Assembly (NCBI RefSeq): GCF_021028975.2
Contig: NC_059437.1
Coordinates: 32,240,001-32,304,000 of the forward strand
Direction of reading: 5' to 3'
From: Sphaerodactylus townsendi
Lineage: Eukaryota
DNA length: 64,000 nt
Shown in pieces: positions 38,040 to 58,164 of this stretch (its first letter is position 1; each line of letters opens with the position of its first letter). Both the position numbers and the translations under genes were made by a program. Under the pieces are notes generated by a model that was given only the letters and a program-made list of their open reading frames with translations, did no database searches and was not told where the DNA came from.

Positions 38040-38436
38040 TCAAGCAAGCTTTAGCACTTCTTTGACCATCTTTCCAACGCCGTCGTAGATGGTGTGGATA
38101 GGTGCATTGCACATGAAAGCACTCGTGGTCACCAGTTTGTTCTTTACGTCCACGTGGACCTCGTCAACATTTTTGTTCACGTGTTTGCAGCCCAGCTCCT
38201 TCAGGCCTTCAGCAGTCTTGGCATAAGGCCACCTGTGGAGGCAGAAGTGAGAAGGCAGTGAGTGTTTTCAGGGTCAGGCTCTCTTACGGAAAATTTGGAC
38301 AGGGCTGAGGGAAGGGGGTGATTTTTCCTCTAGGGTTTTCAGGACACTGTGTAGGCTAGACTTGTATCTGGGGAAAAAAACTATGCTGCTGAGATGAATG
38401 TGGATGGAACCAGTTCTGGCAAAGAACTTGATGGCC

Positions 38437-38517
<81 letters not shown>

Positions 38518-54100: not shown

Positions 54101-57100
54101 ATCTTGTTGGGTTGCAGAACCAAACCACACAGTTATAGAGGTGCAGATGTCAGACTCAATGATTCCTCTGTAGAACTGTATCAGCAGCTCCTTGGGCAGT
54201 TTGAGCTTCCTGAGTTGGCGCAGAAAGAACATTCTTTGTTGTGCTTTTTTGATGACATTTTTGATGTTAGGTGACCATTTTAGGTCATGAGATATGATGG
54301 AACCTAGAAATTTAAAGGTCTCTACTGTTGATACTGTGTTGTCTAGTATTGTGAGAGGAGGTAGGATGGGAGGGTTTCTCCTGAAATCTACCACCATTTC
54401 TACGGTTTTAAGTGTGTTCAGTTCTAGATTGTTCCAGTGGCACCACGAGGCTAGTTGTTCAACCTCCCGTCTGTATGCGGTTTCATCGTTGTCTCGAATG
54501 AGACCAATCACTGTTGTATCATCTGCAAACTTCAGTATTTTAACAGATGGATCGTTTGAGATGCAGTCATTGGTATACAGAGAGAAGAGAAGTGGTGAAA
54601 GTACACAGCCTTGGGGGCCCCCTGTGCTCATATTACAAGTGTCTGATGTAATTTTTCCTAGCCTCACCTGCTGTTTCCTATCTGTTAGGAAGCTTGCGAT
54701 CCACTTACAAATATGCTCAGGTACTGCTAGCTGATTTAGTTTGGTTAGAAGAATGTCCGGTATGATAGTATTGAATGCTGAACTAAAGTCAACAAAGAGG
54801 ACCCTTGCATAGGTCTTTGGCGATTCAAGATGCTGTAGAATATAGCGCAAAGCCATATTAACAGCATCATCTGTCGATCTATTTGCTCGGTATGCAAATT
54901 GCAAGGGGTCCAACAGTGGATCCGTGATGGTTTTCAAATGATACATCACTAGCCTTTCAAAAGTTTTCATAACTACAGATGTTAGAGCAACTGGTCTGTA
55001 GTCGTTCAGTTCCTTGATGGAAGGCTTCTTTGGCACTGGGACGATAGTGGAGTGTTTGAAGCAGGAAGGAACATAGCACATCTCTAGTGATTTGTTGAAG
55101 ATTTGGGTGAAGATGGGGGCCAATTGGACAGCACAGACTTTTAAGCAAGAAGGTGTTATCTTGTCTGGGCCTGGTGCTTTTCCAGGCTTCTGTCTGTGAA
55201 ATAGATCTTGCACTTCCTTTTCTGAGATCACCAGGGGTTGTAAACCCAATGAAATGGGTGCAGTTGTAGGAAGTTTGGCTATTGTTGGTGCATCTGAAAT
55301 AGAGGTTGTGGAGAAAGGTGACTGTAGATTATTTTCAAACCTGTGGTGCTCCACTTAAGTGGTGCTTAAGTGGTGCTTAAGTGGTGCTCCACTTAAGGGC
55401 CGTTGCTGTCATTTTCTCTTCAGGATGGGAGAGTTTTCATGCTGATTAACTCTTTTTCTTTCCAATGTAGGTGAATGGGTGGACTACCTGGGCATGAAAG
55501 ACTCTGCTAAATATGTTGGTACCCCTCAGAGCGTAGCTATTCGCATCCCAGATTGCTCAGTCACTACCCATCTGATTGATTTGGTGAGCTGAATCTAGAA
55601 CCTCTTCAGTATGTCTGCCTCTGTGTTTGTGAAAGACCATGGAAAGATTGGTGAGCAATCCAGGAATGTATTCTGTACCACTCACCTCTTAAATAGCATA
55701 TAGGTGAAATCTGTAAGGTTTGCAGATTTGAATTCTACTTCAATGTTTTTTTCTGCACCAGACTTCTCAGTTCTAGAGAAGTGTGAGCTTGGTTTATTTT
55801 CAAAAAAGTCTCCTCATAAGGATAGGAAGCTTTTTAAAAAGAATGTGATTTTTATTTAATCTGACTTCCATGACAGAGCCAATACACAGGGAATTGTCTC
55901 ATTCTAGGATTTGCTCTGTTATGACAGGAAAAGCTACCCTCTGTAGATCCAGCCTCGTGCATGCAATTCTTTTTGATCTTATGAATAGCCGCATTCTCTC
56001 ACTTTCTTTCTCGGTCTTTAGGTTGGCCCAATTACTGTCACATCTGCCAATCCTACAGGAGAAGCAGACACTACTCACCACAACCAGGTGTATGCCAAGC
56101 TGGGAAACAAGGTAAATTCTATGCAAATGCTTGCTCTTTTGGCAGTCCCTCTTGGAACTTTAGGGTACCAGTGCTTAAGTTCAGTGTACTTTGGGGAACT
56201 TTGGGGGAGTCAAATGTCTAGAACAGGAGTCTCCAATGTGATGCTTGTGGGTGCCATGGCTCGAACCAACACCTTTCCTGGGCCCTGCTGCCTAGTGTTT
56301 CTAGAAAGTGGATGGATCAAATGTCTTTTTTTCCCCAGCAGGGTATCTGACTGGCTGTTAGAAAGCTTATTGGCTGTGCAGGGTTTTTTTTAAAAAAATA
56401 GTACTTTGGCAGCAGCTATCTTCAAAGCACAAGAACCGTAAACAATATTTTATTTTTAGAAGGCATCCTGTTAAATGGAGTTTCTGCCTGCAGTGCTAAA
56501 AGTTACAGAATTATATGTGACCTTACTCTGGCTCCTATGGCAGCCATTTTGTGCTTGCATCTACCACCCTGTGACACACTTCTAAAAGTGCCTGCAGGCT
56601 CAGAAAGGTTGGAAGGCCTTGTTCTAGAAAGACCCAAAATATAAGTGCTGCTGATTTGCTCAGAATAAGAGCCTTTTATTTCACTGGATCCATTCACTAC
56701 AGTTGTGCGCAGGACAGGAGTGGAAACATCTGAGCCTTTTCAGTTTACCTACCTTCTTTCCCTATGAAAAGAAGAGTGGTCCTTTCCGCACAGCCAAAAT
56801 GAAATGTCCTGCAGACATTTTAAAAAGATCTGTTTTGGCTCTCTATGCTGAGCCATGGATCTTCCACCAGTTTAGTCTGGCTTGAACTCAGAATACCAGA
56901 GCACCATGAAGGCAGGATGTATTTCTTGTATAAATTGCCAGAACATGTCTGGACAGAGCTTCTTCTCTCCACTAAAAAAAATCTGAGACACAGTGACGAT
57001 TCTTCTCTAGGTGGATGCTGTTCTTTGTGATGGACCTTCTCCGGAGAACATAGCCTCCACAGTGGTGGATTGCACCAAGATTGAGAGTGGGAACATTGGG

Positions 57101-58164
57101 TTCTTTAGAGTCGGTCTTGTCCCCAAATCCCAGGTCAGCATTGTCTCATCGATCCTTCTCTTGTACAATCATCTTGATGTGTTAATTCAGCCACATTTAT
57201 TGTTTAAAATTATGTATTGTAAAGTACAGTGCAATGTGTATAAAACGTTTGCAAGCCTGATAAAAGTTCTACACAAAGATCGTAGGAGGGGAACCTCTGG
57301 GCACTTAAGCAAAAATGTAAACATGTTGGCACTCCAATATATCTGCCATCCAGGGGCACAGAAAGTGTTGTCCTTCTTTTTTAAATAACTTTGAACCTAC
57401 CTTCTTCCAAACAGCTTAGAGCAGCACGCATAATTCCTTTCCATTTTGTCTCACAACATCCCTGTGAGGGAGGTTAGAAAAAAATGACTGGCCCAAAGTC
57501 ACCCAGGTAGTTTCAGTAGGAATTTGAAATCAGGACTCAGTGTGGCATACTGAGGACTACACACTAAGCACTGGATTTCTGGAAGGACAAACTCATATTT
57601 TTTCTCGCAATCATACATGTAAACTTTGCTGAGAACAGTCTCACTTGCTAATGCAACACCCCTTTGCAGTCTACAGAGCTTGCCATCTGCACTTGCAGCT
57701 CACTGTCCGACAGCATTGCTTTGCCCAGGATTCTAGAAAACGAAGCATTTTATAGGGCTTCAGTTCTACTGATGACTTTTGCAGTCAGAGTCAGAGTGTG
57801 GCCCTGTGCAGCCTGTGCATGCATCAGAGCAGCAGGTGTGCCTTGAGAGACCCGGAGCTCTTGAAAACGGACACCGGGCTTCATTCAGAGGAGATTAAAC
57901 TAGGAAGGGAGTCCCTAGATCCACCGAACATCCATTGAATCTTGCATTCTTTGTCTCTGTTTTCAGGTATTACAGATTCTGGAGCAGGTCCAAAAAAGAC
58001 ACCAGTCAGGCCACATCAACAGCACCCTGGCTCTGGAGGGCAAGGAAGAGCAGCATACCCTGTTAAAAGCCTCCCTCATCAATGGTGCTCATGTTCAGAG
58101 GAAGTCACCAACATCGTATACTAACAGTGCATTTTGTGTTGATGAGAGAGATGAACCTCAGTGA
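48106..58164 (+). CDS. Uncharacterised 873-aa polytopic membrane protein: three SatP/YaaH/Gpr1/Fun34-like repeats plus C-terminal Sua5/YrdC-like domain; exons 48106-48151, 48717-48830, 49772-51460, 52628-52727, 53261-53409, 55471-55583, 56022-56111, 57011-57133, 57967-58164
   Basis: Nine GT-AG exons give a 2622-nt open frame. Membrane part: YADAEVLGY...AGGLLKLLCGSMAFSRGKTLESCAFILYGFMW...FYCFLTALVNGTFERPQLPIG aligns by eye with E. coli SatP. YrdC part: GGICGIPTDTVY, AWPSPISLVI, AIRIPD, TSANPTG, STVVDC, FFRVG. TATAAA at 48068-48073; AATAAA cluster 59188-59254. Confidence 0.88.
48951..49160 (+). mobile_element. tRNA-derived SINE (Squam3-like); further minus-strand copies at about 32690-32880, 47280-47420, 52060-52280
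   Basis: AGCTCAGCGAGAGAGCATCTGCTTGGCATGCAGAAGGTCCCAGGTTCAATC tRNA-like head followed by a body shared among the copies. Confidence 0.7.
49423..49548. mobile_element. Palindromic hAT-type MITE (family of 259 element)
   Basis: TSD TTCTAGTC on both sides; CAGGGGTCTGCAACCTG...CAGGTTGCAGACCTCTG. A half copy lies at about 40074-40145. Confidence 0.8.
53496..55342 (-). mobile_element. 5'-truncated Rex1/Babar-type LINE (RT domain) in intron 5 of the AceTr-YrdC gene
   Basis: ORF 55354-53984: KAPGPD, NDYRPVALTS, QFAYRANRSTDDA, FVDFSSAFNTI, PQGCVLSPLLF, KFADD; one frameshift near 54000 continuing to ...SFFPNAITLLNK*; 3' AATAAA and (TTCTA)n tail at 53496-53515. Confidence 0.88.

Follow-up and report, generated by a model that had tools for sequence, protein, structure and literature searches.

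An ElbB-like gene and two AceTr-YrdC genes lie with IRG1L in a conserved, infection-induced block that may act as an itaconate module

Two divergent genes of the gecko Sphaerodactylus townsendi, which encode an ElbB-like protein (ElbB1) and a fusion of AceTr repeats with a YrdC domain (AY1), are neighbours of a second AceTr-YrdC gene (AY2) and of IRG1L, an ACOD1-like itaconate synthase. That these genes form a co-regulated, conserved block is very probable, and a functional tie of the block to itaconate is somewhat favoured. We regard as evenly poised the full reading, in which ElbB1, AY1, AY2 and IRG1L constitute one conserved itaconate module that is infection-induced in zebrafish; that the putative channel exports itaconate or one of its derivatives is put forward tentatively. 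The pair lies in a stretch of 64,000 nucleotides (the window), to which all positions refer unless a contig is named.

Results

The divergent gene pair

ElbB1, the orthologue of zebrafish si:ch211-153b23.5, occupies 38040..42901 on the minus strand. Its four exons (42901-42794, 39705-39534, 39359-39158 and 38232-38040; all GT-AG) give an open frame of 224 aa, and exons 1-3 are joined by one spliced contig from RNA run X4. AY1 (AceTr-YrdC paralog 1), the orthologue of si:ch211-153b23.4, runs on the plus strand (48106..58164) with nine exons and an open frame of 873 aa, in which three AceTr repeats are followed by a YrdC domain without the KxR arginine. The large exon 3 (49772..51460, plus) encodes aa 54-616, which take in the greater part of repeat 1, both further repeats and the linker; exons 4-8 (52628..57133, plus) encode the YrdC/Sua5-like domain. 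The queried exons matched P0121 (ElbB1) and P0001 (AY1) at 100%. A preliminary description had presented the two genes as a divergent pair with ATGs 5.2 kb apart, which is borne out by the intact frames and an ATG-to-ATG distance of 5,205 bp. Its term 'bacterial-style' holds for the protein families only, as the genes carry ordinary introns and have orthologues in species ranging from fish to platypus.

A TATA box had been described at each gene. TATA[AT]A occurs at 42975..42980 (minus strand), 79 nt above the ElbB1 ATG, and a TATA-like motif at 48068..48073 (plus strand), 38 nt above the AY1 ATG within a CpG-rich stretch; as described, none was found within 200 nt above the OGT ATG. As only 83 of 1,598 80-nt tiles of the window carry the motif, the two matches exceed chance. 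The 5' end of the ElbB1 contig at 42945, 35 nt below its TATA box, is consistent with TATA use, whereas the contig over AY1 exon 1 starts at 47929, upstream of the AY1 motif (contigs cannot fix a start). Reads of run X8, raw RNA of a related species, covered ElbB1 exons and were absent from the bins of AY1 exon 1, which is short and GC-rich. Bidirectional-promoter pairs have starts within about 1 kb. The 5.2 kb spacer exceeds this spacing and is rich in repeats, as read pile-ups indicate, and ElbB1/AY1 is therefore not a compact bidirectional promoter. Scans of the spacer with NF-kB, ISRE, GAS and C/EBP consensus sequences gave nothing above background.

ElbB1 scores as an ElbB equivalog (279 bits against NF008747, cut-off 180), and its best PDB matches are ElbB structures. 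The catalytic Glu and Cys motifs of the ElbB / DJ-1-PfpI family are retained; among the 120 ElbB1 matches listed, the Cys motif was found in 117 and the Glu motif in 90, the remaining 30 giving no match to the pattern. E. coli ElbB converts glyoxal to glycolate. ElbB1 begins with the first strand, level with the beginning of bacterial ElbB in the alignment, and has no N-terminal mitochondrial presequence; it is therefore predicted to be cytosolic despite the label 'mitochondrial'. A second gecko locus, on contig C4, has the order ACOD1 -> <- ElbB2, followed by CLN5 and FBXL3. ElbB2 shares the four-exon layout of ElbB1, and the two fall on opposite sides of a 100/100 branch in the tree, while a third ElbB paralog, also on C4, has a different exon layout. 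That an ElbB paralog flanks ACOD1 as well points to itaconate chemistry. The ElbB1 branch of the tree (62 rows) contained no therian sequence.

The block beyond the window

Downstream of AY1, the first part of a 32 kb spacer (58165..64000) leaves the window. Taken together, the gene order on contig C13 is ElbB1 <- -> AY1 -> <- AY2 <- -> IRG1L -> <- GLOD5. AY2 (AceTr-YrdC paralog 2; G000:C13:32330161-32339044, minus strand), the orthologue of si:ch211-153b23.3, has nine exons and encodes 838 aa with an intact KxR motif. IRG1L (G000:C13:32343454-32349246, plus strand; boundaries of exons 2 and 3 approximate) stands head-to-head with AY2 at 4.4 kb. It aligned to ACOD1 structures (E 4.8e-103) and keeps His, Lys, Asp and Tyr motifs, which we take to be the ACOD1 active-site residues. 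GLOD5, a possible fifth member at about G000:C13:32358005-32360574 (minus strand), came from an ORF scan (one relevant match in 109 ORFs) and matches STM3117 of the Salmonella itaconate response operon (E 3.6e-10). An exon-wise search with the PhyH family, of the type that missed GLOD5, found no 2OG oxygenase at the gecko locus. A search of prokaryotic loci with the IRG1L alignment gave no match; among the best 80 of 291 GLOD5-like prokaryotic loci, one had an IRG1-like neighbour, two had YrdC/Sua5 and none had ElbB.

Conservation and loss

By hand tally, orthologues lay on contigs of the same length in 15 of 17 species for AY1-ElbB1, 11 of 14 for AY1-IRG1L and 20 of 24 for ElbB1-IRG1L, counts that include contigs of 100-400 kb and the Phrynocephalus tags 007265/007267/007268. 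The linkage of the pair is thus conserved. YrdC, GAT, VOC and 2OG-oxygenase genes are described as adjoining IRG1L and paleo-IRG1 in the accessible part of a synteny preprint (10.1101/2022.06.17.496652), which also reports that IRG1L is active in vitro (zebrafish orthologue), lost in therians and kept in platypus. Absence from marsupials and placentals is reported in the parts seen of that preprint and of 10.1101/2025.05.26.656167; the joint therian loss could be a single deletion.

AY1-type genes are present in molluscs and amphioxus too, and the platypus AY1 is P0108 (the AY1 homologue survey covers the 120 listed of 405 matches). Recent transfer from bacteria was ruled out by the introns and the broad animal distribution. 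The AceTr-YrdC fusion was also seen in a marine protist transcriptome set and in further assemblies. Since the protist-set fusions lie outside the range of IRG1 given in the accessible text of 10.1101/2022.06.17.496652, the first role of the fusion was probably not in itaconate metabolism. In one frog, AY1 (P0250) no longer has the YrdC motifs, and the best match to IRG1L lies on a different contig.

Expression of the block

In zebrafish infected with S. sonnei (PMC6980646, file 8), expression of the four core genes increases between 8- and 66-fold, with log2 changes of 6.04 (.3), 5.81 (irg1l), 4.05 (.4) and 3.08 (.5), placing them at rows 5, 7, 42 and 77 of 23,517. Two neighbouring zebrafish genes had been described as having these domain types and being infection-induced, which proved correct: si:ch211-153b23.4 is AceTr-YrdC,.5 is ElbB-like, and both respond together. 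The flanking genes were uninduced (ogt.1 0.08 / -0.03, kctd12.2 0.04, kctd12b 0.08), as were yrdc (0.27), gatd3a (-0.36) and the ElbB2 gene zgc:162944 next to acod1 (0.23); the change of glod5 (0.65) was not significant. In the same data, the PHYHD1-like oxygenase zgc:174917 was induced (5.68). For zebrafish, co-induction and the synthesis of itaconate by matrix-targeted IRG1L are already in print.

Of the six core-gene pairs, five ranked in the top 41 of 1,485 (r 0.79-0.90) and one was 119th across a set of 18 toxicant exposures. The unlinked genes sult5a1 and si:ch211-207n23.2 correlated with the core genes as strongly as these did with one another, so the co-variation may reflect one tissue response. 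The chicken caecum shows a 28-fold induction of an ES1-like gene located on chromosome 4; according to a review, ES1-like is found in non-leukocytes, and 'IRG1', its paralog not stated there, in phagocytes.

The block thus has the features of a gene cluster: adjacent, non-homologous, conserved and co-induced genes between uninduced flanks. For the pair itself, we found neither separation as a rule in other lineages, nor independent loss, nor expression in non-overlapping conditions.

YrdC domains

The YrdC domain of AY1 was recognised by PF01300 (118.5 bits) and TsaC2 (E 4.8e-19) and lies under the equivalog cut-off of TIGR00057 (114.8 vs 123.2). KxR is an ATP-binding motif that is important in YrdC/Sua5. 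AY1 has K-Q-Q where TsaC2 has K-E-R, and the arginine is missing in 119 of 120 RP-type (AY1) motif matches, 10 of the 120 listed proteins having given no motif match. Loss of KxR led us to rule out t6A synthesis as the role of AY1. In the alignment to TsaC2, AY2 keeps the KxR (K-D-R), SxN (TSAN), RxP and ST motifs, and the arginine is kept in 34 of 35 KP-type matches. The housekeeping yrdc of zebrafish is a separate gene.

A complex model of the two YrdC domains, built with a pair from two fish species and with one AY2-type row in the AY1 alignment, scored 0.87, compared to 0.00 for the best of three controls. Of 157 solved complexes, 116 reached the mark used, as did 2 of 215 mismatched pairs (eukaryotes: 39 of 65 and 2 of 126). 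Runs agreed in at least 98% of contacts, with a partner pLDDT of at least 91. The YrdC domains of AY1 and AY2 are thus predicted by the model to dimerise; the predicted interface is symmetric, so homodimers may form as well.

AceTr part

An AF2 model of the AY1 AceTr part from 103 diverse rows reached a pLDDT of 90.3, and replaced one from 20 close sequences (41.6). Repeat 3 superimposes on SatP (Z 20.2, rmsd 2.3 A, 169 residues) and thus has the six-helix SatP fold, and the AceTr profile matches SatP at E 2.4e-8, which indicates homology. Family HMMs stayed below cut-off (PF01184 23.6 bits vs 25; NF038013 23.9 vs 50). Homology by hhalign was 95% for repeats 2 and 3 and 96.5% for the first repeats of AY1 and AY2, and only 2.4% for AY1 repeats 1 and 3. 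No repeat carries an intact NPAPLGL signature, which marks the beginning of helix 1: its position holds LHGAVGL, ELAAFGL and DAEVLGY in AY1, and EPAVLGL and EPMALGN in AY2 repeats 1 and 2. AceTr leads from the ESM Atlas were all below 0.9. Pairing of AY1 with AY2 is predicted to yield a SatP-like channel with six pores. Besides acetate and lactate, SatP transports succinate.

Discussion

Our best reading is an itaconate module rather than general glyoxal detoxification. IRG1L would likely make itaconate, which the paired AY1-AY2 channel would likely export, as such or as a derivative; ElbB1 would likely clear or finish a reactive product of the pathway. Rather than modify tRNA, the YrdC pair, one site canonical and the other degenerate, may sense or use ATP and bicarbonate and so regulate the channel. 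Here we infer the substrate, the direction of transport, hetero- over homo-pairing and the control of the channel by YrdC. Several observations count against the module: ElbB2 is uninduced beside acod1, unlinked genes co-vary, the AceTr signature is degenerate, an IRG1-like neighbour adjoins just one of the best 80 GLOD5-like prokaryotic loci and ElbB none, and the cell types of ES1-like and 'IRG1' differ in chicken.

The strongest alternative, which we consider unlikely, is that the genes form a biosynthetic cluster and make a defence metabolite that has yet to be described. The AY2 YrdC domain would adenylate a carbamate or carboxylate (from CO2 or itaconate supplied by IRG1L), the product would be tailored by ElbB1, perhaps along with GLOD5 or a 2OG oxygenase, and the fused channel would export it. 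The intact motifs of AY2, a housekeeping yrdc that is separate and uninduced, the resemblance of GLOD5 to STM3117 and the induction of zgc:174917 would fit, as would the fungal itaconate cluster, which, in the portions seen of its description, makes 2-hydroxyparaconate by an oxygenase and holds a VOC protein. Against this stand the lack of an oxygenase gene in our weak exon-wise searches of the gecko locus, the non-significant induction of glod5 and the mostly different contexts of bacterial GLOD5-like genes. We know of no product of such a cluster. An equally improbable extension would make it more than 500 million years old, shared by egg-laying vertebrates, amphioxus and molluscs, and turning itaconate into a secreted, undescribed antimicrobial via the channel and two adenylating YrdC domains, one active and the other inactive; of the whole, only ACOD1 would have been kept by marsupials and placentals, which lost the cluster.

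Slightly less probable still, the neighbours may share an inflammatory enhancer but not a pathway; regulation or infrequent rearrangement would have kept them side by side until one deletion removed them in therians. The co-varying unlinked genes and the uninduced ElbB2 beside acod1 speak for this, as do a fusion that seems older than the cluster and the synteny preprint (10.1101/2022.06.17.496652), which detected no functional clustering in the part seen. However, the flanking ogt and kctd12 genes are uninduced, every member of the block is a small-carboxylate enzyme or carrier, and the same domain set is reported, in that part, next to paleo-IRG1 in invertebrates, a long time for bystanders to persist.

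Vertebrates already have MCT lactate carriers and GLO1/DJ-1. This background, together with YrdC domains and an ElbB gene beside both ACOD1 paralogs that it leaves unexplained, makes it quite improbable that ElbB1 is a glyoxalase III turning inflammatory glyoxal/methylglyoxal into glycolate/lactate for export by AceTr channels, with IRG1L a co-induced neighbour, although ElbB1 passes the ElbB cut-off with both motifs kept, AceTr proteins carry acetate and lactate, and GLOD5 is another glyoxalase-fold protein. Of the detoxify-and-export unit initially proposed, co-regulation survives; its two-gene glyoxal-to-glycolate story gives way, as the pair is half of an IRG1L-centred block and ElbB2 flanks ACOD1. 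The 'metabolite-producing unit' offered alongside comes closer.

Unrelated metabolic genes rarely form clusters in animals, although they commonly do so in fungi and plants. Among the zebrafish genes that respond most strongly to infection, several belong to this block, and of these only irg1l has a name; the members of the block are direct candidates for export or modification of itaconate at the body surfaces of fish, amphibians, reptiles and birds. With an itaconate module, the AceTr-YrdC fusion would gain a candidate first function, and YrdC domains a first candidate role beyond tRNA modification. Such a module also calls for caution, as the itaconate biology of zebrafish and chicken has parts that are missing in mice and people.

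Relation to known systems

AY1 and AY2 are members of the vertebrate Ato (AceTr) x3 - Sua5/YciO/YrdC family, described with the same architecture and two vertebrate clades in a preprint (10.1101/2025.05.26.656167) whose accessible part proposes a two-chain, six-domain ring. It gives the fusion as present 'except mammals', whereas platypus has AY1. The words 'itaconate' and 'synteny' are absent from its text, and the part seen makes no mention of the two clades being adjacent, infection-induced or divergent in KxR. The IRG1L / paleo-IRG1 preprint (10.1101/2022.06.17.496652) describes the same YrdC/GAT/VOC/2OG-oxygenase neighbours, in the portion seen without detecting functionally related clustering or mentioning channel domains. 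It states there that IRG1 lacks synteny with these domains, whereas gecko ACOD1 has an adjacent GAT/ElbB gene. Fusion protein and synteny are thus each in one preprint, and neither, as far as the accessible texts go, connects both.

In the Ustilago maydis itaconate cluster, Pseudomonas PA0878-0886 and Salmonella STM3120-3117, an itaconate enzyme is clustered with transporters and a VOC protein (PMC9875883, PMC12290011, 10.1101/648865). According to the accessible parts of these sources, the fungal VOC protein is 59.7% identical to the lactonase PA0880, which adjoins an MmgE/PrpD gene. The transporters there are of other families, YrdC and ElbB are not named in those parts, and the bacterial operons degrade itaconate; the likeness to the gecko block is one of analogy. 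E. coli ElbB and vertebrate GATD3 (ES1) share their family with ElbB1, which differs from GATD3 in lacking the presequence and in being inducible, whereas gatd3a is not. Finally, SatP (PDB 5ys3, 5zug) shares its six-helix fold with repeat 3 of AY1; SatP assembles as a homohexamer from single-domain chains that carry NPAPLGL, whereas AY1 has three diverged repeats fused to YrdC.

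Gene models of ElbB1 and AY1

The proteins encoded by the two genes of the window (G000:C13:32240001-32304000) matched Sphaerodactylus townsendi records at 100% over the queried exons. The minus-strand ElbB-like gene (ElbB1; 42901 to 38040) comprises four exons with an open frame of 224 aa. Its score with the ElbB model, 279 bits, exceeds the cut-off of 180, and examination of the protein start revealed no presequence. The plus-strand AceTr-YrdC gene (AY1; 48106-58164) has nine exons and an 873-aa open frame. The two ATGs are 5,205 bp apart, and a TATA[AT]A motif, which occurs in 83 of 1,598 tiles of 80 nt in the window, is located 79 nt upstream of the ATG in ElbB1 and 38 nt upstream in AY1. 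In an RNA run of a related species (X4), one contig carries ElbB1 exons 1-3 spliced together, its end lying 35 nt downstream of the TATA motif, and another spans AY1 exon 1 and begins upstream of the AY1 TATA motif. Both genes were thus detected in one sample, by contigs from which neither expression levels nor start sites are derivable.

By eye, ElbB1 intron 3 contains a long (CAT)n microsatellite (38438-38518) and AY1 intron 5 an apparent LINE fragment (about 53500-55340). A diverged centrin-like gene (EF hands; 33096-36796, plus strand) lies convergent with ElbB1, between it and a gene that, from its translations, we take to be OGT (6455 to about 29000); the exons upstream of the latter (1-4500) presumably belong to the 3' end of TAF1, which their translations resemble.

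A larger block and a second ACOD1 locus

AY2 (G000:C13:32330161-32339044, minus strand; nine exons, 838 aa) is a second AceTr-YrdC gene; its product shares 31% identity with that of AY1 and 61% with the catfish protein labelled si:ch211-153b23.3. Head-to-head with AY2, 4.4 kb apart, lies the ACOD1-like gene IRG1L (G000:C13:32343454-32349246), which also has a TATA motif and whose product keeps the active-site motifs. GLOD5 is found 9-11 kb past IRG1L, followed by a KCTD12-like gene. The 32-kb interval that separates AY1 from AY2 is partly filled by reverse-transcriptase/transposase-like remnants (L005:6800-10000, L006:1-2400).

The gecko genome contains one further ACOD1 match, on contig C4, where the order is ACOD1, ElbB2, CLN5, FBXL3 (the last two names presumed). 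ElbB2 shares the four-exon layout of ElbB1 and stands tail-to-tail with ACOD1, ahead of CLN5 and FBXL3 (G000:C4:109686589-109701205; L021-L023); no AceTr-YrdC gene was found at this locus. In marsupial and grouse records ElbB2 is annotated as an FBXL3 isoform, which suggests read-through splicing. In a tree built from 105 rows, each 200-260 aa long, a 100/100 branch separated ElbB1 from ElbB2. The 62 rows on the ElbB1 side cover skate, lungfish, coelacanth, teleosts, amphibians, monotremes, reptiles and birds, and none is named as therian; the marsupial sequences are ElbB2. As an ElbB gene lies beside both ACOD loci and the tree splits the two, we infer that the ElbB-ACOD link predates duplication of the locus. 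Loss in therians is probable from the same tree and from the accessible parts of two preprints.

Conservation across animals

Linkage was scored by hand: for each species that appeared in both lists, the longest-contig values of the two orthologues were matched. AY1 and ElbB1 had the same value in 15 of 17 species (misses: Sakesphorus, Pleurodeles), AY1 and IRG1L in 11 of 14 (misses: Emydura, Sakesphorus, Pyxicephalus) and ElbB1 and IRG1L in 20 of 24, where values may stem from another cluster member and a few species were matched by number, not name. Chromosome-size contigs carry little weight as linkage evidence; the informative cases are contigs of 100-400 kb in Melospiza, Ifrita, Calyptomena, Mantella, Formicarius, Sapayoa and Pitta, together with near-consecutive tags in Phrynocephalus (007265, 007267, 007268). 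Molluscs and amphioxus possess both AY1 and AY2, and the AceTr-YrdC fusion extends to a transcriptome set of marine protists.

Longer fusions with an extra C-terminal domain (P0275, P0277, P0282) appear in that set and other assemblies; KxR is intact in the ones whose full sequence was printed. Platypus has an AY1 (P0108), contrary to 'except mammals' in the accessible text of bioRxiv 10.1101/2025.05.26.656167. Tachysurus vachellii carries four AY2 copies on one contig (tags 013710, 013716, 013722, 013727; P0519, P0526, P0528), at a spacing of 5-6 genes that would fit tandem amplification of the entire block; in Hyperolius, a single contig holds IRG1L along with three copies of ElbB1.

Co-regulation during infection

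The preliminary description had named zebrafish si:ch211-153b23.4 and.5 as infection-induced genes of these types. They proved to be AY1 and ElbB1, respectively,.3 being AY2, and their induction is borne out by Shigella sonnei-infected fish, with log2 changes of 6.04 (.3), 5.81 (irg1l), 4.05 (.4) and 3.08 (.5) in the accessible data of PMC6980646 (supplementary file 8), where ogt.1, kctd12.2, kctd12b, yrdc and gatd3a were unchanged. Across 18 exposures the four genes co-varied with r of 0.65-0.90 in all six pairs, which ranked 3, 10, 13, 17, 41 and 119 of 1,485 (PMC8877790 Table 2, based on 55 of 58 visible rows, three with missing values being left out). In the parts available of two further studies, irg1l,.3 and.5 were hubs of a single module (PMC11140123), and irg1l,.4 and.5 made up three of the five top genes following a single exposure (PMC9228135). 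A chicken chromosome-4 ES1-like gene, probably the ElbB1 orthologue, was induced 28-fold in non-leukocyte caecal cells (PMC4256799, accessible part).

Induction of zgc:174917, a PHYHD1-like oxygenase, was as strong as that of irg1l (5.68; PMC6980646 file 8, row 9); this gene could correspond to the neighbour given as '2OG oxy' in the IRG1 synteny preprint.

Channel repeats and YrdC domains

The membrane part of AY1 consists of three repeats of ~185 aa each (hhalign); repeat 1 matches repeat 3 weakly and AY2 repeat 1 strongly. No repeat has an intact NPAPLGL signature, and AY1 scores below the curated cut-offs of AceTr family HMMs. Its profile retrieved SatP (E 2.4e-8), and in an AF2 model of aa 55-600 (pLDDT 90.3, 17 helices) repeat 3 compared to SatP with Z 20.2 and rmsd 2.3 Å. 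In the YrdC domain at the C-terminus, PTDT, RIP, TSAN and STVV are retained, and K-Q-Q stands at the position of TsaC2 K-E-R. The KxR arginine is missing in 119 of 120 AY1-type motif matches, from scallop to birds, and present in 34 of 35 of the AY2 type; judged from these sequences, its loss in AY1 is fixed. In a frog AY1 (P0250) the YrdC domain is eroded, without PTDT or SAN motif, and the membrane part is full.

The predicted complex of the AY1 and AY2 YrdC domains scored 0.87 (best control 0.00). In the calibration, 116 of 157 solved complexes attained the mark, and 2 of 215 mismatched pairs did so. Agreement between runs was 98% of contacts or more, and partner pLDDT was at least 91. This prediction supports dimerisation via YrdC domains, not hetero-pairing as such, since the interface is symmetric and the calibration was made without close relatives of a partner; the pairing may echo likeness to a solved YrdC dimer.

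A possible itaconate-linked module

Itaconate is a succinate analogue. According to the accessible parts of two preprints, the IRG1L enzyme of zebrafish resides in the matrix and made itaconate in vitro (bioRxiv 10.1101/2022.06.17.496652), and succinate is among SatP cargo (bioRxiv 10.1101/2025.05.26.656167). Two chains with three repeats each would give six protomers as in SatP. Together with the predicted YrdC pairing, this points to a block in which IRG1L would make itaconate, AY1 and AY2 would export it, ElbB1 would clean up or modify, and the YrdC pair would serve in control or catalysis linked to ATP and bicarbonate, a reading to which we give an even chance. That the block makes a new secreted metabolite seems unlikely. 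Against a shared module count zebrafish ElbB2 beside acod1, which was flat in S. sonnei infection (log2 0.23), glod5 (log2 0.65, not significant; both PMC6980646, accessible data), and the unlinked sult5a1 and si:ch211-207n23.2, which co-vary equally well (PMC8877790 Table 2, visible rows); shared regulation with no common pathway is improbable. Glyoxal detoxification is the least probable. Of the detoxify-and-export pair proposed at the outset, both genes and their zebrafish identities are confirmed; the interpretation holds in part and is too narrow, with AY2 and IRG1L lying beyond the window.

Relation to published systems

By analogy, GLOD5 is a lead for an additional member of the proposed itaconate-linked block: genes for VOC proteins belong to itaconate operons of Salmonella and Pseudomonas and to the Ustilago cluster, PA0880 being a 2-hydroxyparaconate lactonase (10.1101/648865, PMC9875883, PMC12290011, accessible parts). 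Similarity of gecko GLOD5 was established for STM3117, not PA0880, and among the best 80 of 291 prokaryotic GLOD5-like loci one had an IRG1-like neighbour. At an uncultured deltaproteobacterial locus (L066:5001-6587), a GLOD5-like gene is directly followed by an IRG1-like MmgE/PrpD gene with 28% identity to gecko IRG1L.

A literature search, with most subscription journals outside its coverage, found no paper uniting fusion and synteny as one induced module, nor any that assembles these known parts into an inducible, itaconate-linked cluster with YrdC channels split into a pair. An Ato-YrdC fusion with three repeats, its division into two clades and the dimer-ring idea are already published (bioRxiv 10.1101/2025.05.26.656167, whose accessible text lacks the words itaconate and synteny). 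The accessible part of bioRxiv 10.1101/2022.06.17.496652 detected no functionally related clustering, and describes YrdC, GAT, VOC and 2OG-oxygenase genes as syntenic with IRG1L and paleo-IRG1.
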